A stretch of 64,000 nt of DNA, taken from contig WRAK01000007.1 of NCBI GenBank assembly GCA_009780235.1, positions 7,847 through 71,846 on the forward strand, read 5' to 3'. Under the pieces are notes generated by a model. That model had not been told where the DNA came from, ran no database searches, and saw only the letters and a list, made by a program, of their open reading frames with translations. Positions 39,202 through 47,447 of this stretch are shown here, piece after piece (position 1 is the stretch's first letter; every line of letters starts with the position of its first letter). The position numbers and the translations under genes are program-made. The DNA is from Oscillospiraceae bacterium. Lineage in GTDB: Bacteria; Bacillota; Clostridia; Oscillospirales; Oscillospiraceae.

Positions 39202-39882
39202 GTGGCTCGTAAAGCATTTTCAATTCATTCTGATTTTTACGAAGAAATACGAAACCTAACGCAAAAAAACCGTAGTGACGTAATTCTTGCCCTCATAGAT
39301 TGGGCTACGGACACGCCCGCTACAATACAGCTAGACCCTGAAATATCTATGTTATTTCGCCTTATGTGTGCGCAAATTGAGCGCATATCAAAGGCGAACG
39401 CCGGGAACGGCGCACAAGGCGGCAGACCGAGCGGAAAAAGCGAAGAAAGCGAAGAAAAGCGAAGAAAGCGAAAAAAGCCTCCCGTTCCCGTTACCGATAC
39501 CGTAACCATATCCAATACCGATACCAAGAGAAAGAGTGCGTCCGCGCTCGTGGCACAGTCTGATTTGCCCGTCCCCGTGAAAGATGCGCTTTGCGACTGG
39601 CTTGCTTATAAGCAGGAGAAACGGCAACCGTACAAGGAAAAGGGGCTGATGGCACTAATTACCACGGTTGGTGGCAACCTCGAGAAATACGGTGAGGCGG
39701 CGGTCATGGCCTGTATCAAGGAATCCATGGCCAACAACTGGCAGGGTATCATCTGGGACAGAATCGACAAGACGGGAGGTGGGCGTAGTGTTGGAGAGCA
39801 TTCTGGCGGCCGTGCCGGAACATCTGCGGGCGGGCGTGAGCCGGGAACTGGAAAACGTGGACTTGACACAACAAGGCTCTGA
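39202..39882 (+). CDS. putative replisome organizer (DUF4373/DnaD-like, tentative)
   Basis: Position directly upstream of the DnaC-like loader. C-terminal LAYKQEKRQPYKEKG...NNWQGIIWD pattern. Confidence 0.45.
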   Translation: MARKAFSIHSDFYEEIRNLTQKNRSDVILALIDWATDTPATIQLDPEISMLFRLMCAQIERISKANAGNGAQGGRPSGKSEESEEKRRKRKKPPVPVTDTVTISNTDTKRKSASALVAQSDLPVPVKDALCDWLAYKQEKRQPYKEKGLMALITTVGGNLEKYGEAAVMACIKESMANNWQGIIWDRIDKTGGGRSVGEHSGGRAGTSAGGREPGTGKRGLDTTRL

Positions 39883-40621
39883 GGCATGGGAACAGGAAAG
39901 GGTCGAGCGTTTAAACGCTGATATCGCCGGTGAGGCGGACGGCTACGATTGCGCCGAGTGCAAAAACAGAAGGTACTTCTGGGGCAGAAAAAACGGGTAT
40001 ACCGTGACAATGCCTTGCAAATGCGTTGATACACGAAGAGCTCGCCGCCGCATTGAAAAGAGTGGGCTGTCGCACTTGCTTTCAGAGTGTACGCTGGAAA
40101 ACTTCCGAACGGACACGGTTTGGCAACACAGTATGAAAGAGAAAGCTCTGGCGTTCCTTGATGACCACCGCGGCAAATGGTTCTGCGCCTTAGGCGTAGT
40201 GGGCGGCGGGAAAACCCACATCTGTACTGCGATGTGCGGGAAATTCTTAGAGCGTGGCCAAGACGTCCGGTACATGATGTGGCTGGACGAGGTTGTCAAA
40301 ATCAAGGCCGTTGCGATGGACGATGAAGCGAGGAGCCGCTTGGTGGAGCCGCTGAAACGAGCGTCTGTGCTGTACATCGATGACCTGTTCAAGTCTGAGC
40401 GAAACGGCACAATCTCGGCGGCTGATATCAAGCTTGCATTTGAGATTCTGAACCACCGCTATATCAACCGGGATTTGGTGACAATCATCAGTTCGGAGCG
40501 GTACATCGAAGATATTTGCGATATTGACGAGGCTGTAGGCAGCCGCATCTATCAGCGGACGAAGGAGCATGTTGTCGAGCTGGTGGGTGCGGATAAGAAC
40601 TACAGGTATAAAAGCCCTTGA
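39788..40621 (+). CDS. DnaC/IstB-like AAA+ helicase loader
   Basis: Walker A GVVGGGKTH and Walker B LYIDDL. GTG at 39788 sits 8 nt after GGGAGG. Confidence 0.72.
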   Translation: MLESILAAVPEHLRAGVSRELENVDLTQQGSEAWEQERVERLNADIAGEADGYDCAECKNRRYFWGRKNGYTVTMPCKCVDTRRARRRIEKSGLSHLLSECTLENFRTDTVWQHSMKEKALAFLDDHRGKWFCALGVVGGGKTHICTAMCGKFLERGQDVRYMMWLDEVVKIKAVAMDDEARSRLVEPLKRASVLYIDDLFKSERNGTISAADIKLAFEILNHRYINRDLVTIISSERYIEDICDIDEAVGSRIYQRTKEHVVELVGADKNYRYKSP

Positions 40622-40646: not shown

Positions 40647-42053
40647 ATGAATCTAACCTATGGTGATTTTTTAGAGCAAAAACGTCTTGATTTGGCAGAT
40701 GGCGGATTTGGTGTCGAAAAAGGAATCCTTAACAGACGGCTCTTTGAATGGCAAAGGGATATTGTGGAATGGTCACTACGCAAAGGAAAGGCGGCTCTGT
40801 TCGAGGATTGTGGGCTTGGAAAAACTTTTCAGCAGCTTGAGTTTGCGAACCAAGTGTGTTGGCATGAAAACACCAACGTTATAATCCTAGCTCCGTTGGC
40901 GGTGGCGCAACAGACGAAGGCAGAGGGAGAGCGATTCGGAATATCGGTCAATATCATCGAAAATCAAGCCGATATTAAAAAAGGAATCAACATCACCAAC
41001 TATGAAAAATTAGATAAATTCAACTTTGGAATGTTCGGCGGCGTGGTTTTGGACGAAAGTTCAATCCTAAAGCATAGTGGAAGTAAAATTCGTAGGGAAA
41101 TAACGAAGATATTTTCAGGCACCCCATTCCGTCTACCATGTACCGCAACGCCTGCCCCAAATGACTTCATGGAAATCGGGCATCATGCTGAGTTTTTGGG
41201 CGTAATGAGCCAAGCGGAAATGCTGGCTACGTTCTTCGTGCACGATAGCGGCGACACGTCGAAATGGAGGCTCAAAGGCCATGCGGAGGGGAAGTTTTGG
41301 GAGTGGATTGCAAGCTGGGCCTGTGTACTTCAAAAACCGTCTGACCTTGGGTATGACGATGTAGGTTATACGCTACCCCCTCTCATCATTCACGAACATA
41401 TTGTGAAGTCAACCAACCTAGAGGACATTGACGGTCAAACCCTACTCATACCTCGTACGACAATGAGCCTAAATGAACGCAGAAAGGCGCGGAAACTAAG
41501 CCTTGAGGATAGGGTCGGCGTGGCGGCGGATATAGCAAATTCAATTGATGGGCAAGCATTGGTGTGGTGCGACCTAAACGCTGAGAGTGAGGCACTCAAG
41601 AAAGCTATCAATGGTGCAGTCGAGGTCAAGGGGAGCGACACTAATAAGCATAAAACTGAATCCATGACAGGCTTTACCGATGGAAGTGTCCGAGCATTGG
41701 TAAGCAAACCATCCATTGCCGGGTGGGGGATGAACTGGCAAAACTCCAATAACATGATATTCGTTGGCCTTTCGGACAGTTTTGAAGCGTACTATCAGGC
41801 TATCCGCCGCCAATGGCGATTTGGGCAGAAGAGTCCGGTCAACGTTCATCTTGTCATATCGGAAGCCGAAGGGGCTGTGAAAGCCAATATAGAGCGAAAG
41901 CAACGGGATACAGAGCGGATGACGCGGGAGCTTATCAAGCATACACAAAAAATACTACAAGCAGAAATCAGGCAGACCACCCGTATAACAGAGGGATATG
42001 CCGCGGCAGAGACCATGGTCGTGCCTGATTGGCTGGGGAGGGTAGCGGGATGA
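40647..42053 (+). CDS. SNF2/DEAD-like superfamily-2 helicase
   Basis: Motif I DCGLGKTFQ, motif II VVLDESS, C-terminal helicase-domain motifs. Confidence 0.72.
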   Translation: MNLTYGDFLEQKRLDLADGGFGVEKGILNRRLFEWQRDIVEWSLRKGKAALFEDCGLGKTFQQLEFANQVCWHENTNVIILAPLAVAQQTKAEGERFGISVNIIENQADIKKGINITNYEKLDKFNFGMFGGVVLDESSILKHSGSKIRREITKIFSGTPFRLPCTATPAPNDFMEIGHHAEFLGVMSQAEMLATFFVHDSGDTSKWRLKGHAEGKFWEWIASWACVLQKPSDLGYDDVGYTLPPLIIHEHIVKSTNLEDIDGQTLLIPRTTMSLNERRKARKLSLEDRVGVAADIANSIDGQALVWCDLNAESEALKKAINGAVEVKGSDTNKHKTESMTGFTDGSVRALVSKPSIAGWGMNWQNSNNMIFVGLSDSFEAYYQAIRRQWRFGQKSPVNVHLVISEAEGAVKANIERKQRDTERMTRELIKHTQKILQAEIRQTTRITEGYAAAETMVVPDWLGRVAG

Positions 42054-43069
42054 ACGTAGGAGTTATTGAACAGCACATAACTGATCGATTTGCGCTTTAT
42101 AACGGAGACTGTGCAGAGGTTCTCAAGGGCATCCCGGATAACACGATTCACTACGAAATCTATTCGCCGCCGTTTGCCAGCCTGTATACATACTCAAATA
42201 GTGACCGGGACTTGGGGAATGTCCGTAGCAATGATGAGTTTTTTACGCAATTCAAATTTATTGCGGAGGAGCTTTTCAGAGTTTTAATGCCCGGCCGCAT
42301 TATGTCGGTACATTGCATGGATATTCCAGCCATGAAGGAGCGGGACGGCAGAATCGGTTTGATTGACTTTCCGGGTCAGCTGATAGCGATGTTCGAGAAA
42401 ATAGGGTTTATATACCATTCCCGTGTCGCAATTTGGAAAGACCCGCTTGTGGAGGCAACTCGCACAAAGGCACTAGGGCTTATGCACAAGCAATTGTGCA
42501 AGGATAGCGCAATGTGCCGGAACGGGTTGCCGGATTATCTGTTGTCGTTCAGAAAACCCGGAACGAACCCGGAGCCGATAGCGCACCCTGGCGGGCTAAC
42601 CTCGTTTGCCGGAGAAGACGAACCGTGCGCTCCGAGAGTTGAGCCAACGATGAAGGATAGTGATAGGCACAGAAAGGTCAGCATGGTAAAGGAAGACCCT
42701 GTCTACTCGCACCACGTATGGAGACGGTACGCATCGCCTGTTTGGATGGATATCAACCAGAGCAATACATTAAACCGTACGAGCGCAAGAGATGAGAAAG
42801 ATGAGCGGCATATATGTCCGCTGCAACTCGATGTGATTGAGCGAGCACTCACCCTGTATTCCAATACAGGAGATACTGTATTGTCACCATTTTTGGGGAT
42901 AGGATCTGAAATCTATCAAGCCCTTAAAATGGGGCGAAAAGGGGTGGGTATGGAGCTCAAAGAAAGCTATTATCGTCAGGCCGTTCTTAATTGTGCCAAT
43001 GTAGCAGAAGAGGATCAGGTTTGTATGTGGACAGGCGAGGGAGCGGAGGGAGAGCCATGCGACACGTAG
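42050..43069 (+). CDS. beta-class N4-cytosine or N6-adenine DNA methyltransferase
   Basis: Motif IV SPPF is N-terminal and motif I VLSPFLGIGSE is C-terminal. ATGA overlap with the helicase. Confidence 0.82.
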   Translation: MNVGVIEQHITDRFALYNGDCAEVLKGIPDNTIHYEIYSPPFASLYTYSNSDRDLGNVRSNDEFFTQFKFIAEELFRVLMPGRIMSVHCMDIPAMKERDGRIGLIDFPGQLIAMFEKIGFIYHSRVAIWKDPLVEATRTKALGLMHKQLCKDSAMCRNGLPDYLLSFRKPGTNPEPIAHPGGLTSFAGEDEPCAPRVEPTMKDSDRHRKVSMVKEDPVYSHHVWRRYASPVWMDINQSNTLNRTSARDEKDERHICPLQLDVIERALTLYSNTGDTVLSPFLGIGSEIYQALKMGRKGVGMELKESYYRQAVLNCANVAEEDQVCMWTGEGAEGEPCDT

Positions 43070-44520
43070 GAGATATCACCGCCCTTCTCGGTCACGAGTT
43101 GGAGCCGGTGGACGTTGTAACCGGCGGTAGCCCATGCCAAGACTTGAGTGTCGCCGGGAAGCGTGAGGGTCTATCCGGCGAACGCTCCGGGCTTTTCATG
43201 GAACAAATCCGTATCATAAAGGAGCTGAGGCAAGCAGATGAGCAACGTAGAACAGGTCAGCCTATTCGACCCAGGCACATGGTGTGGGAAAACGTCCCCG
43301 GAGCCTTCTCCAGCAACAAAGGCGAAGACATCCGGGTCGTCCTCGAAGAAACGGCAAGGATTGCCGAGCCGGATGCCATTATTTCTAGACCTCCGGGCGG
43401 GAAATGGTCAACTTCTGGGTGCATCATGGGAGACGGATGGAGCATCGCTTGGCGAGTTCTCGACGCACAGTTTTGGGGAGTACCCCAACGTCGCCGTAGA
43501 ATCGCACTTGTCGCAGATTTTGGAGGCCAATCCGCACCCGAAATACTCTTTGAGCGAAACGGCGTGCCGGGGAATCCTGTGGCGAGCGGAGCGGAGAGGG
43601 AAGGAGTTGCCAGAGGAGTTGCGGACGGCATTGGAGGCACAGAGTACCTTTCGGGGTGGGATGTCCAAGACAAACGCATATTCAGCGGAAGGGGGGTCTC
43701 TCCAACCTTATCCGGATGCGACGGAGGCGGTGGAAGAAATCCGGCGGGAATAGTCTATGCAGGTTTCAACGGCCACAAAAGCATAACAGGATCTATTCAA
43801 TACGCAGAGGGCGTGTCACCAACGCTTGAAGCTAATATGCCGAGCAACATTTGCGAGATTTGCCGGACAGACCAGACAGGGAGTAACGGTCTGGGAATTT
43901 GCGAAGATATAGCACACACGTTAGACGGTGCTACGGGCAAAGCGGTTTTCGAGAGCCACGGCCAAGATTCCCGGTATAGGGGGCCGTTAGACGTATCGCC
44001 AACGTGTGCAAGGAAATGGGGAACGGGTGGTGGGAATGTGCCGCTAGTCGCAGGCATAGATTGCCGCAACCATTACGAGAATGATGGTGTGTCGGCTACG
44101 CTACAAGCGAAAGAGAGCGGGGGGCAAAGCCTGAATTATATCAATCCCGTAAGGATTGAGCAATCAGTCCGCCGCCTCACACCACTCGAATGCGAACGGC
44201 TCCAAGGCTACCCGGACGGGTGGACGGATATCCCGGACTACATACACAACGGAAAGCGGCGCACGGCCAGCGACACGGCTCGGTATCAGGCACTAGGCAA
44301 CAGCATCGCACTTCCGCCGTGGGTGTGGATCCTCGGGCGCATATCGGCGCAATATGGGCGCACCGCAACGCTGGGTAGCCTGTTTGATGGGATAGGCGGG
44401 TTCCCGCTGATTTGGGAGCGGATTAACGGCGGAGGGTCGGCGGCGTGGGCGAGTGAGATTGAGCCGTTTTGTATCGCGGTGACGGAGCATTGGTTTAATG
44501 GAGCAGGGGCGGTAATATGA
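43057..44520 (+). CDS. DNA (cytosine-5)-methyltransferase with permuted motif order
   Basis: GGSPCQDLS (IV), WENVPG (VI), QRRRRIALV (VIII), repeated SPTL target-recognition-like segments, RRLTPLECERLQGYP (IX), ALGNSIALP (X). Only after these comes LGSLFDGIGG (I) at the C-terminus. Confidence 0.82.
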   Translation: MRHVGDITALLGHELEPVDVVTGGSPCQDLSVAGKREGLSGERSGLFMEQIRIIKELRQADEQRRTGQPIRPRHMVWENVPGAFSSNKGEDIRVVLEETARIAEPDAIISRPPGGKWSTSGCIMGDGWSIAWRVLDAQFWGVPQRRRRIALVADFGGQSAPEILFERNGVPGNPVASGAEREGVARGVADGIGGTEYLSGWDVQDKRIFSGRGVSPTLSGCDGGGGRNPAGIVYAGFNGHKSITGSIQYAEGVSPTLEANMPSNICEICRTDQTGSNGLGICEDIAHTLDGATGKAVFESHGQDSRYRGPLDVSPTCARKWGTGGGNVPLVAGIDCRNHYENDGVSATLQAKESGGQSLNYINPVRIEQSVRRLTPLECERLQGYPDGWTDIPDYIHNGKRRTASDTARYQALGNSIALPPWVWILGRISAQYGRTATLGSLFDGIGGFPLIWERINGGGSAAWASEIEPFCIAVTEHWFNGAGAVI

Positions 44521-45359
44521 ACGGCATAATCCGAGTATTTCCGCAGCGTACATCATACACCCCAACGGACGGCTACAGTTTTATAGGCTCGCCGCCTCCG
44601 CTCTTCATACCAGAACATAAAGAAGTCCATATCTCCTGCATATTTACATGGGACAAAGCCGAATGCGAAGAGTTGACCTACCAGTGGGAGGGTCAAACAA
44701 ATAAGCCGGTCAAACTCGGCGGCCCGGCATACAGCTCACCGGCAGACGAGCACATCCCCGGCATGTACATCAAGCAGAATATTATTTTCACGACCCGCGG
44801 CTGTAACAATCGGTGCCAATGGTGCGTGGTGCCACGCATAGAAGGACGGCTCCGGGAGCTACCAATTCATGTGGGGAACATCATCCAAGACAACAACTTC
44901 TTGCAAGCCAACCGGGCGCACAAAGATAAGGTCTTCACCATGCTACGCACACAACGAGGTATTTGTTTCAAAGGTGGGCTGGATGTTGGTTTGATAGACA
45001 CTCACTTCATCGACAACATAACCGGCCTTCGCATTAAAGAGCTCTGGCTGGCTTGCGATACGGATGCGGCGATTCCGAGGTTCAAAGCCGCCGCCGAAAA
45101 GCTGGTAAAGGCGGGGTTCAATCGCGAGAAAATTAAGTGCTACGCGCTAATCGGCGACAATATGGCTGAAAACGAAGTTCGATTACGCGAGATATATCAC
45201 GCGGGGGCTATGCCGTTTGCACAATTGTACCGGGACTTTGGGGGCATGAAAACGGAGTACAGCAAAGAATGGAATGCGTTTGCCCGTTCGTGGCAACGCC
45301 CAGCGGCAATCGTCGCACACATGGAAAAAGGTACAGATTTTAGAGATTTCGGAACATGA
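44517..45359 (+). CDS. radical SAM domain protein
   Basis: TRGCNNRCQWCV contains the Cx3Cx2C cluster motif. ATGA overlap with the C5-methyltransferase gene. Confidence 0.6.
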   Translation: MNGIIRVFPQRTSYTPTDGYSFIGSPPPLFIPEHKEVHISCIFTWDKAECEELTYQWEGQTNKPVKLGGPAYSSPADEHIPGMYIKQNIIFTTRGCNNRCQWCVVPRIEGRLRELPIHVGNIIQDNNFLQANRAHKDKVFTMLRTQRGICFKGGLDVGLIDTHFIDNITGLRIKELWLACDTDAAIPRFKAAAEKLVKAGFNREKIKCYALIGDNMAENEVRLREIYHAGAMPFAQLYRDFGGMKTEYSKEWNAFARSWQRPAAIVAHMEKGTDFRDFGT

Positions 45360-45375
45360 CGGGAGGGAGCAGATT

Positions 45376-45555
45376 GTGGCAATTAAAATCAGAATCCAGA
45401 AGCACGGTGCAATGACCGAGGCGGATCGGTTGCAAGTTGCAACCCTGCTTATAAAAGCCGGGTACACGGCTCGCATCGGTCGAGAACGGCCGGCGGGCAA
45501 AGATAGCGGCACATATATCTACTACGTCGAATATTGGGACGGAACGCAATCATGA
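45376..45555 (+). CDS. hypothetical small protein
   Basis: GTG at 45376 after GGGAGGGAG, 59 aa. Confidence 0.35.
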   Translation: MAIKIRIQKHGAMTEADRLQVATLLIKAGYTARIGRERPAGKDSGTYIYYVEYWDGTQS

Positions 45556-45770
45556 GCGCATTAGATATGAGCTATGACGGAAGCCTTTATATGGCAGTAA
45601 CCCCGGACGAGTACGAGCTGCCTTTGGTCGTGGCCGCATCAGCGGCTGAATTGGCAAGGGTGTGCGGAACATCTGAAAGCAACATTCGAGTTCAGATATG
45701 TCGCGGATACAATGGGACGAATTCAGGCAGGAAATTTGTAAAAGTTGAGGTTAGAAGTTGTGATGAATAA
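45552..45770 (+). CDS. hypothetical small protein
   Basis: ATGA overlap with the upstream ORF, 72 aa. Confidence 0.4.
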   Translation: MSALDMSYDGSLYMAVTPDEYELPLVVAASAAELARVCGTSESNIRVQICRGYNGTNSGRKFVKVEVRSCDE

Positions 45771-46338
45771 AAGCGGAATAGGTTGCGAAAATCAGCCGAC
45801 AACCTCAAATGGAAAAACGCAATATCAAGATAGGGATTGGCTGAGTGAGCAATATCAATCGCTCAAAAGCATTTACGCAATCGCAAAAATATGTGGTTGT
45901 CATCCAAGGACGATTCACAGTTGGTTAATTAGGCATGGCATCTCACGAAATAAAAACCGGAACCATTCGGAGGAGACAAGGCGAAAAATGTCGATTGCAA
46001 ATAAAGGTCGCCCATCTGGTATGCTCGGGAAAAAGCATTCTGATGAAACAAAAAGAAAAATGTCCGAAGGAAGAAAAGGGCCTTTGAATGGGAATTGGAG
46101 AGACGGGGCGACTGAGAGGATTCGGAAGTTTCGCAGAACCAAAGAGTATATACGCTGGCGGAAGCAAGTAATAGAATCGGCAAATGGTAGATGCCAGAAA
46201 TGCGGTCTAGAACTCCCATTAGAGGCTCATCACATTGTTAGTATTCACAAAGACTGGGAGCTGGCGTTAGAACTATCAAATGGAATGGCGTTATGCAAAG
46301 AGTGTCATTTGAAAGAAGGTAAAAGGAATGATGAATAA
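45763..46338 (+). CDS. HNH homing endonuclease with NUMOD3 repeats
   Basis: Tandem HSEETRRKMS / HSDETKRKMS NUMOD3 motifs, then CQKCG...EAHHIVS...CKECH. Confidence 0.75.
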   Translation: MNKSGIGCENQPTTSNGKTQYQDRDWLSEQYQSLKSIYAIAKICGCHPRTIHSWLIRHGISRNKNRNHSEETRRKMSIANKGRPSGMLGKKHSDETKRKMSEGRKGPLNGNWRDGATERIRKFRRTKEYIRWRKQVIESANGRCQKCGLELPLEAHHIVSIHKDWELALELSNGMALCKECHLKEGKRNDE

Positions 46339-47176
46339 GAGCAAAATCGACTATGTTGATTTTTCATGGAACCCTGTAACCGGTTGTCGGCACGAGTGCC
46401 GGAACACATACTGCTACGCCTCAAAGCAAGGCAGACGGTTTTGTGGGGACATCCGGGCGAACAAAACCTCGCCACAGATTCAGATGCTAGACGGCGGCTT
46501 ATACATACTGGACGAACCGTTCAGGAATAGTGCCGGAAAGGTTGTACCTCTCCCGGCCGGGTTCGAGCCGACGCTCCACAAATACCGACTGGAGATGCTG
46601 AGCCGGAAAAAGAAGCCCGCCAACATCTTTGTCGGGAGCATGGCGGACGTGTTTGGTGAGTGGGTGCCGGATGAGTGGATTACAGCTGTATTTGATGCTT
46701 GCGCCGCAGCTCCGTGGCATAAATACCTGTTCCTTACGAAGAACCCGGCGCGGTACGGGGAACTCGCCGAAAAAGGTCTGCTCCCGGATGCTCTGAATAT
46801 GTGGTTTGGCTCCACGACAACGAGGCAGGAGGATATGTTCTGGTGGAGCAAATGCCATAACACGTTTGTGAGCATTGAACCGTTGATGGGGGTATTTGAG
46901 CCGCCGGATAATCCCATGAAGAAGGTGGATTGGGTCATCATTGGTGCTGAAACGGGTTGTCGCCGCGGCAAGGTCGTGCCGGAACAGGTATGGGTAGAGA
47001 ATATCGTCGTTGCCTGCCGGGAACTTGGGACTCCTGTATTCATGAAAAAGAACCTCGCTGCCGTGTGGGGCGAGCCGTTGATTCAGGAATACCCTACTAG
47101 GTTGAATGCACAGGCGAGAGACAATCATGAGTTCGACGAGGCCCGATTTACGGAGGAGGTGCCGCGCAATGAGTAA
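46328..47176 (+). CDS. phage Gp37/Gp68 family protein (DUF5131)
   Basis: SWNPVTGC.HEC..CYA, FVGSMADVF, FLTKNPARY, DWVIIGAETG. Confidence 0.78.
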   Translation: MMNKSKIDYVDFSWNPVTGCRHECRNTYCYASKQGRRFCGDIRANKTSPQIQMLDGGLYILDEPFRNSAGKVVPLPAGFEPTLHKYRLEMLSRKKKPANIFVGSMADVFGEWVPDEWITAVFDACAAAPWHKYLFLTKNPARYGELAEKGLLPDALNMWFGSTTTRQEDMFWWSKCHNTFVSIEPLMGVFEPPDNPMKKVDWVIIGAETGCRRGKVVPEQVWVENIVVACRELGTPVFMKKNLAAVWGEPLIQEYPTRLNAQARDNHEFDEARFTEEVPRNE

Positions 47177-47447
47177 AATTTCGCAAAACGACATGGAGTA
47201 TCTGCAAGACATGGTGGACAGAGGGGAAATGACCGCTGCACAGGCGAATGTTGAAAAAATACGTATGGCGCGAGTCTTAGTAGTAAAGAAGCTACCGGCC
47301 GATGTGCTCTCTGCGCTCAATGCCGCAGTTAAAATCGGCGAGCTGTGCCATAAAAAGAAAGACGGGCAGAAGCCGGAAGTTTATTATCATCCGATTTGGC
47401 CAACGAAGAACGTAATCGCGCCGAACGGCAGGTGCTTGATGCGCTAG
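47169..47447 (+). CDS. hypothetical protein
   Basis: ATG overlaps the DUF5131 stop, 92 aa. Confidence 0.4.
   Translation: MSKISQNDMEYLQDMVDRGEMTAAQANVEKIRMARVLVVKKLPADVLSALNAAVKIGELCHKKKDGQKPEVYYHPIWPTKNVIAPNGRCLMR

Follow-up and report, generated by a model that had tools for sequence, protein, structure and literature searches.

We analysed a 64,000-nucleotide stretch of DNA (the window) from an Oscillospiraceae bacterium (assembly GCA_009780235.1, contig WRAK01000007.1, positions 7,847 to 71,846 of the forward strand), which is a prophage within a gut Oscillospiraceae genome. At 40647-47176 it carries a run of genes for an SNF2-family helicase, two DNA methyltransferases, a 280-aa radical S-adenosylmethionine (SAM) protein and a protein of the DUF5131 family. 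Our analysis makes it rather probable that this block is a mosaic island in which the radical SAM gene is a separate module, itself probably directed at DNA or at host defence. The 6.5-kb run would be a composite DNA-modification and anti-restriction island at the end of the early gene array, assembled from modules, each of which travels between mobile elements on its own. The first module would be the SNF2 translocase with the beta-class methylase, that is, a translocase-coupled methylase, and the second an orphan C5-methylase of a widespread permuted lineage. The third would be the radical SAM enzyme, which seems to prefer the spot just downstream of an element's orphan DNA methylase, and the fourth DUF5131, a separate radical SAM family whose 5' end appears to have been invaded by an HNH homing endonuclease.

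We favour this mosaic reading because the best non-self identities are unequal (radical SAM protein 83%, DUF5131 protein 69%, C5-methylase 59%), the gene order is shuffled among related loci (L015, L104, L073, L075, L161, L127 and L085 hold three or four of the block families), an HNH gene and unrelated open reading frames (ORFs) lie inside the block, and the two radical SAM families are nearly independent of each other. We suppose that the block is transcribed as a whole, with its genes coupled in translation, at an early time after induction or infection. The two methylases, which are most likely ordinary anti-restriction enzymes, would mark the replicating phage DNA and so let it escape restriction in the next host. 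Each radical SAM enzyme would have its own separate job, for which DNA or host defence is the most plausible target, and the two would not catalyse successive steps on a methylated base.

The company of the radical SAM gene was investigated in 160 radical-SAM-centred and 80 DUF5131-centred loci, and about 200 related elements were compared. The loci came from pattern-based retrieval, which is biased to anaerobe metagenomes. Their ORFs, based on crude gene calls, were searched with profiles seeded from the window proteins and from recurrent neighbours, and methylases were detected with three home-made profiles (C5, N4/N6 and Dam-type D12). Percentages refer to 68 non-redundant radical-SAM-centred loci, flanked on both sides by 5 kb or more, and to 37 DUF5131-centred loci. 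Within 2 kb of the radical SAM gene, a C5-methylase was found in 28% of the 68 loci, an N4/N6 methylase in 16%, a Dam-type methylase in 15%, and any of the three classes in 50%. DUF5131 lay within 5 kb of it in 8.8% of these loci. Among the DUF5131-centred loci, 2.7% held the radical SAM gene and 40% a methylase within 2 kb.

As controls we used intervals of equal width placed 5-9 kb off in the same loci; for the radical SAM gene, 39 long-flank loci served. A methylase was present at the radical SAM gene in 23/39 loci (59%) and in the two sets of control intervals in 1/39 and 3/39 (together 4/78, 5%; Fisher p = 2e-10), and the enrichment was significant for the C5, N4/N6 and Dam-type classes each. 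It was weaker at DUF5131 (14/30 vs 8/60, p = 0.001). No methylase was found within 2 kb in 16/39 long-flank radical SAM loci. The association is also directional: the methylase occupied position -1 or -2 relative to the radical SAM gene in 34/137 loci and position +1 or +2 in 9. The gene maps include the orders C5-Dam-radical SAM, Dam-C5-radical SAM, C5-N4/N6-radical SAM and SNF2-N4/N6-radical SAM. Of the two partnerships that the sequence-only reading had drawn for the radical SAM gene, the one with methyltransferases is borne out by these counts, with the radical SAM gene usually directly downstream and in distant phyla too. The one with DUF5131 is not supported, since the two genes occur together in only 3-9% of loci.

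The order of methylase followed by radical SAM gene recurs at 40-45% protein identity in Planctomycetota, Anaerolineales and Omnitrophota. In these distant phyla the upstream methylase is of the N4/N6 type, about 470 aa long and, by eye, a ParB-N fusion. Judged by genomic context, the radical SAM gene is genuinely linked to orphan methylases, in a way that is local, directional and kept across phyla, and an accessory-gene hot spot does not easily account for this. In one locus (L060, 4292-5875) a single 527-aa ORF comprises the radical SAM protein and a full N6_N4_Mtase domain. This fusion looks as if a stop codon had been lost where a start overlapped it (junction '...KDYKH-MIELIK'), and we weighted it little for this reason. 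Two ORF clusters beside the radical SAM gene in high-GC loci (c37 and c67) were rejected, as they look like spurious wrong-frame ORFs.

The radical SAM gene also occurs in elements without a nearby methylase, such as phage L008, the type IV secretion system element L007, and Acetobacterium elements (L113, L119, L122, L135 and L167). In the last, the order is ParA, ParB, a 122-aa Cys-rich ORF, the radical SAM gene, a ParB-like gene and a MobA/VirD2 relaxase, with SSB further along. The strains are cultured, and carriers include A. wieringae DSM 1911, A. bakii DSM 8239 and A. carbinolicum DSM 2925. The gene is a neighbour of what is presumably the oriT/relaxase region of a mobilisable element. 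Plasmid leading regions hold islands in which orphan methylases occur together with SSBs and anti-defence genes (PMC11541004), and the Acetobacterium ParB/relaxase/SSB region resembles them; radical SAM proteins are unmentioned in that survey. Across the loci compared, the radical SAM gene appears as a strongly conserved gene of phages and of conjugative or mobilisable elements, and its neighbourhoods also hold HNH, ParB-N and ASCH genes. In L005 an HNH gene of a type other than that in the window lies directly upstream of it.

In the window, the radical SAM gene (44517..45359, + strand) encodes a 280-aa protein of the phrog_9298 family with the cluster motif CNNRCQWC. The three cysteines (C96-x3-C100-x2-C103) were invariant in 38 close homologues and at least 90% conserved in 41 diverse ones. 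Homologues number more than 1,300; those of the top 120 clusters share 66-83% identity with the query, and identity is 40-45% in Planctomycetota, Anaerolineales, Omnitrophota and Synergistota. The family is basic (median isoelectric point, pI, 8.6). Pfam PF04055 scored 21 bits, under its cut-off of 29.5, with the match confined to the cluster loop, and a precomputed PF04055 match exists in a minority of the homologues. The AlphaFold2 (AF2) model (pLDDT 93.9) has a small N-terminal Rossmann-like domain and a radical SAM core. The nearest solved folds in Foldseek were TsrM, MiaB and AprD4 (E ~1e-5; template modelling score, TM, 0.48-0.59 normalised to query), and the four matches with E <= 0.001, which represent three proteins, were all radical SAM enzymes with a probability of 1.00. 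Among viral models (BFVD) no close fold was found, the best match being a giant-virus methylthiotransferase.

MiaB/RimO/MtaB, TsrM and AprD4 have the same order, an N-terminal Rossmann-like domain and then a C-x3-C-x2-C radical SAM core, and weak sequence matches to the 280-aa protein occur around the cluster loop. Having neither an auxiliary cluster nor TRAM nor, it seems, a cobalamin domain of full size, the 280-aa protein would fall outside the TsrM, MiaB and AprD4 families. In length it falls about 170-250 residues short of these structural matches; it ends at residue 280, without TRAM. Its N-terminal domain has one Cys (C41), which is invariant in the 38 close homologues and below 90% in the diverse set. 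Membership in MiaB/RimO was rejected for want of a three-Cys auxiliary cluster and of TRAM, and the MiaB/RimO-type NCBIfam models gave 16-20 bits against cut-offs of 251-357. Within the class B comparison TsrM is the best fold match, yet the N-terminal domain here has only about 85 residues (four strands, one helix). A QueE/7-deazaguanine role was also rejected: there was no NCBIfam match, no que or dpdA gene, and QueE ranked 12 in Foldseek (E = 0.02).

Searching the PDB by sequence, whether with one sequence or with a profile, gave nothing useful for either radical SAM protein, and no PADLOC model matched the 280-aa protein. The deposited phage and plasmid collections held no close homologue of it, so that there is no cultured-phage model. 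The sequence-only reading had regarded the roles of the radical SAM and DUF5131 proteins as not established; our literature search agrees, in that no published function and no functional study turned up for either family. A second, distinct radical SAM family, with ORFs of about 310-340 aa that match only profile positions 83-250 (E ~1e-17 to 1e-23), was seen in about 12/301 genomes of the order (G126, G029, G273, G213, G085 and others). In G256 its gene lies 1.1 kb from a DUF5131 gene.

The DUF5131 (Gp37/Gp68) gene (46328..47176, + strand, 281-282 aa) was identified by PF07505 (127.4 bits vs a cut-off of 28.9) and phrog_2045 (8e-61). The family has more than 7,800 matches and is found in 73/301 (24%) genomes of the order, against 5/301 for the full-length radical SAM family; the genome analysed here has one copy of each gene. 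In SFLD and RadicalSAM.org, DUF5131 is one of the radical SAM subgroups and shares a megacluster with spore photoproduct lyase. The best PDB fold for the AF2 model (pLDDT 85.9) was also spore photoproduct lyase, although the match was weak (probability 0.99, E = 3e-3, TM ~0.46). The suggestion of a radical-type enzyme from the sequence-only reading was therefore right. SplB, the lyase, is a radical SAM DNA repair enzyme and a precedent for such an enzyme acting directly on DNA. However, the likeness is one of fold only, with no detectable sequence similarity by single sequence or profile, and the hosts of DUF5131 are gut anaerobes, for which UV photoproducts are irrelevant.

The N-terminal motif GC.HEC..CYA that had been read in the window copy is the family consensus, and the window copy departs from it. 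There the motif is GCRHECRNTYCYA, that is, C-x3-C-x4-C, whereas the other 35/36 aligned homologues have C-x3-C-x2-C, and the window copy alone has the two-residue insertion. It corresponds to an in-frame insertion of 6 nt in the Fe-S cluster loop (46385-46415). The aromatic residue ahead of the third Cys is retained, and the Cys-rich C-terminal tail of most relatives is lacking. From its sequence, the window protein may be a weakened or altered enzyme.

DUF5131 matched the PADLOC models PDC-M41B (7e-37) and PDC-M30B (1.5e-33), which indicates that the family also resides in bacterial defence islands. None of the four adjacent ORFs that were scanned for a PDC-M41/PDC-M30 partner matched any PADLOC model. 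TcmP (TIGR04474), which pairs with the three-Cys-motif protein in NCBIfam, was absent from the whole genome. The window DUF5131 is a stand-alone phage form. The radical SAM mobile pair was rejected as a model, since DUF5131 scored 96.6 against a cut-off of 355 for protein A (TIGR04471) and 21 against 410 for protein B (TIGR04470); the rare co-occurrence of the radical SAM gene with DUF5131 also speaks against it, and the 280-aa protein matched neither TIGR04471 nor TIGR04470. The closest DUF5131 relative (L169/L170, 69% identity) has nearby radical SAM and C5-methylase genes that are not orthologous to those of the window. It was rejected as a syntenic carrier, because its radical SAM protein is of another family and its C5-methylase is canonical and 28% identical. 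Other DUF5131 phages examined had neither a radical SAM gene nor a C5-methylase.

Directly upstream, at 45763..46338 on the + strand, is a gene for a free-standing NUMOD3-HNH homing endonuclease (191 aa, phrog_8446; Pfam NUMOD3 and HNH). Its start ATGAATAAAAGC (MNKS..., 45760-45775) nearly repeats the DUF5131 start ATGAATAAGAGC (MNKS..., 46328-46345). From this repeat, it seems that the DUF5131 start was the insertion site of the homing endonuclease, which copied the first codons of the DUF5131 gene. Such mimicry was rejected as a general DUF5131 feature, as a 24-nt repeat was found in 2/63 loci, one of them an artefact. In L169/L170 an HNH gene of another type lies directly upstream of DUF5131.

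The block opens with the SNF2-family helicase/translocase gene (40647..42053, + strand, 468 aa), which has an upstream ribosome-binding site (RBS), GGAGG. Both SNF2-family lobes were identified in its product, the N-terminal ATPase (SNF2-rel_dom, 24.9, exactly at the Pfam cut-off) and Helicase_C (32.9 vs a cut-off of 23.5); it matched phrog_62 at 1e-57, and the motifs GLGKT and DESS are visible. The next gene (42050..43069, + strand) encodes a 339-aa beta-class amino-methyltransferase (N4/N6), in which SPPF (about residue 39) lies ahead of motif I, SPFLGIGSE (about residue 279). It matched Pfam N6_N4_Mtase (62.6 bits vs a cut-off of 26.7, 7e-17) and the PADLOC model MTase_II. Its product is probably N4-methylcytosine (m4C) or N6-methyladenine (m6A), between which the sequence does not decide.

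These two proteins form a single protein of 837-841 aa in L164 (5001-7514) and L107 (9267-11792). The fused proteins score 1e-196 and 1e-119 against the profiles seeded with the two window proteins, and the window holds the split form, its halves linked by an ATGA overlap. Among 16 SNF2-bearing loci, the methylase was fused in 3 and immediately downstream in 5, and PHROG 16 covers both domains. Because the two are fused in relatives, SNF2 pairs with the beta methylase and not with the whole block, and on these comparisons nothing else in the block acts like a unit.

The third gene (43057..44520, + strand) encodes a circularly permuted C5-cytosine methyltransferase of 487 aa. Motifs I (FxGxG), IV (PCQ), VI (ENV), VIII (QRR), IX and X (GNS) are all present in permuted order, and the full layout, with the target recognition domain (TRD), is III-IV-VI-VIII-TRD-IX-X-I-II. 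The Pfam DNA_methylase match (117.7 bits vs 22, 1e-33) begins at profile position 47, and the TIGR00675 score was 113.5 bits against a cut-off of 100.65. BLASTP against the canonical enzyme of L075 aligned query residues 1-430 with subject 46-484 and query 437-480 with subject 2-43. On this alignment the enzyme is a clean circular permutation with its break between motifs II and III. As 115/120 of the best homologue clusters have the same layout, we regard the permuted enzymes as a functional and widespread lineage, which would be no local accident.

M.BssHII, M.Alw26I, M2.Eco31I, M.Esp3I and M2.BsaI likewise have all ten C5 motifs in circularly permuted order. In a 2018 REBASE survey, natural permuted C5-methylases were found to break only in the variable region (PMC5944983). 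The window enzyme, which runs from III to X and then has I-II, differs from these cases by its break between II and III, and relative to that survey this topology may be undescribed. It would be a small further addition to methyltransferase classification.

All the genes and domains that the sequence-only reading had listed were present on the + strand when the ORF list was combined with Pfam, PHROGs and NCBIfam profile scans. The overlaps of 4-13 nt between the first four genes were also found exactly in the junction DNA: ATGA joins SNF2 to the beta methylase at 42050 and the C5-methylase to the radical SAM gene at 44517, and 13 nt (43057-43069) are shared by the two methylase genes. Short overlaps are not distinctive of the block and are common across the prophage; between 30 and 56 kb, 18/44 adjacent + strand gene pairs overlap by crude gene calls.

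Known hypermodification routes include 5-hydroxymethylcytosine (5hmC)/TET-JBP with glycosyltransferases, 7-deazaguanines (DpdA, QueC/D/E) and Mom. Thymidine hypermodification involves 5-HMUDK, aGPT-Pplase, pyridoxal phosphate (PLP) enzymes and a radical SAM isomerase (PMC5889632, PMC8989533). These known pathways are phage-encoded and post-replicative, and one has a radical SAM enzyme. Among the Pfam, PHROG and NCBIfam matches for the ORFs scanned at 35.8-52.1 kb, however, there was no hallmark enzyme of a known pathway; kinases, glycosyl- and amino-transferases, TET/JBP, DpdA and Que genes were all missing.

Orphan methylases offer another comparison. The Bacillus phages SPR and SPbeta have multispecific orphan C5-methylases that act in anti-restriction. 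Orphan-methylase islands, like the block, contain methylases without a cognate endonuclease, early and among SSB, ParB-like and establishment genes; their presumed role is to shield incoming or progeny DNA from restriction. The block goes beyond them with a helicase-coupled beta methylase, a C5-methylase of unusual permutation and a pair of uncharacterised radical SAM enzymes. The block had been described as an anti-restriction or hypermodification operon, more than simple orphan methylases. A DNA-modification and anti-restriction island with more than such methylases is what our data support. The single operon or pathway is not supported, given the 3-9% joint occurrence of radical SAM gene and DUF5131 and the missing hallmark enzymes.

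A single hypermodification pathway would have the methylases place 5-methylcytosine (m5C) and/or m4C/m6A on the DNA, the radical SAM and DUF5131 enzymes elaborate the methylated base, and the helicase open access. It would suit this pathway that the first four genes are tightly coupled in translation, that the radical SAM gene lies directly downstream of methylases at many loci, and that radical SAM gene, DUF5131 and methylase are present together in L161, L127, L085, L015 and L104. We nevertheless judge it quite improbable, because the radical SAM gene has neighbours that make m5C, m4C/m6A or Dam-type m6A, or has no such neighbour. The gene pairs equally with the three methylase classes, and some conjugative or mobilisable elements carry it without any methylase in the vicinity. 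Besides the small overlap between the loci of radical SAM gene and DUF5131, the block is broken up by the HNH gene and two unrelated small ORFs, the DUF5131 cluster loop is atypical in the window, and the known enzymes are missing from 35.8-52.1 kb. Cooperation at the level of the cofactor, in which the radical SAM enzyme makes a SAM analogue so that the methylase transfers a non-methyl group, or shields methylated DNA from Type IV restriction, would fit a partner of any of the three methylase classes and also the L060 fusion. We consider it very improbable: it is purely conjectural and has no precedent among the closest folds, the L060 fusion resembles mere stop-codon loss, and many elements have the radical SAM gene without a methylase nearby.

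It is a possibility of some weight, though still an unlikely one, that both radical SAM enzymes are unrelated to DNA modification or defence (repair, tRNA/RNA or metabolic roles) and that methylases lie near them through a shared accessory hot spot, proposed to lie between the replication and packaging genes. The nearest radical SAM folds are tRNA and protein methylthiotransferases, HNH, ParB-N and ASCH genes share the neighbourhood, and the methylase-rich surroundings of DUF5131 likewise indicate a general island effect. Such a hot spot fits poorly with an enrichment that is very local (±2 kb vs 5-9 kb), directional and kept across phyla at 40% identity. The position of the radical SAM gene in the relaxase/ParB/SSB region, where establishment and anti-defence genes cluster (PMC11541004), and the basic character of the family are further points against it.

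Returning to the mosaic island, several points weigh against it. The loci scored without a methylase may have been overcounted, because the profiles cover three classes only. The cross-phylum adjacency of radical SAM gene and methylase, with the L060 fusion, suggests real cooperation, beyond independence of the modules. The overlaps are denser inside the block (7/8 junctions) than in the rest of the early region (11/36; crude gene calls), which could mean more than packing. The loci with several block families in shuffled order are also compatible with a looser functional guild.

We see the radical SAM gene as a good candidate for a new function, either DNA-directed or anti-defence. More specifically, and only tentatively, the 280-aa protein might represent a new kind of radical enzyme that mobile elements direct at DNA, acting with the upstream orphan methylase; we hold this to be rather unlikely as it stands. 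It is proposed because the protein is conserved (about 70% in many clusters, about 40% across phyla), follows C5, N4/N6 or Dam methylases, is once fused to a methylase and lies in the relaxase/ParB/SSB region. Such an enzyme could place a direct non-methyl mark, or alter SAM or the methylated site, and thereby let the element's DNA evade methyl-dependent as well as classical restriction.

Whether phage or plasmid DNA withstands restriction on entering a new host depends on its modifications, which have also been a source of useful enzymes. If the radical SAM enzyme does cooperate with orphan methylases, radical chemistry would join the anti-restriction toolkit of gut and anaerobe elements, and a family in well over a thousand protein clusters would gain a function, perhaps with clues to DUF5131. 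If it does not, the lesson is one of annotation: overlapping radical SAM and methylase genes in a prophage do not make a hypermodification operon without evidence of co-occurrence. In this block, it is the association of the radical SAM gene with orphan methylases that deserves experiment.

The block is the tail of the early operon for recombination and replication. This follows from the genes around it (Pfam, PHROGs), with RecT, a metallo-hydrolase, HNH, NinB, SSB, an O-like initiator and a DnaC-like loader (39668-40621, which precedes the SNF2 gene) upstream, and small genes of no assigned function and then a late regulator downstream. Between the radical SAM and HNH genes are two small ORFs on the + strand, joined by a further ATGA overlap. 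The first (45376..45555, 59 aa) has a GTG start, the RBS GGGAGGGAG and a match to phrog_3253, which is without assigned function. The second (45552..45770, 72 aa) has a weak sigma-70 region 4-like helix-turn-helix (HTH). Neither was conserved beside the radical SAM gene in other loci, and they were rejected as its conserved partners for this reason; homologues of the 72-aa ORF occur in 6 loci only, at no fixed position. The tightly overlapped run ends with a 92-aa ORF (47169..47447, + strand) that overlaps the DUF5131 stop by 8 nt and matches no Pfam or PADLOC family. Further downstream, at 52.4-54.7 kb of the window, is a ParB-N/ABC-ATPase/formyltransferase cassette, which is shared with the L169/L170 phage.

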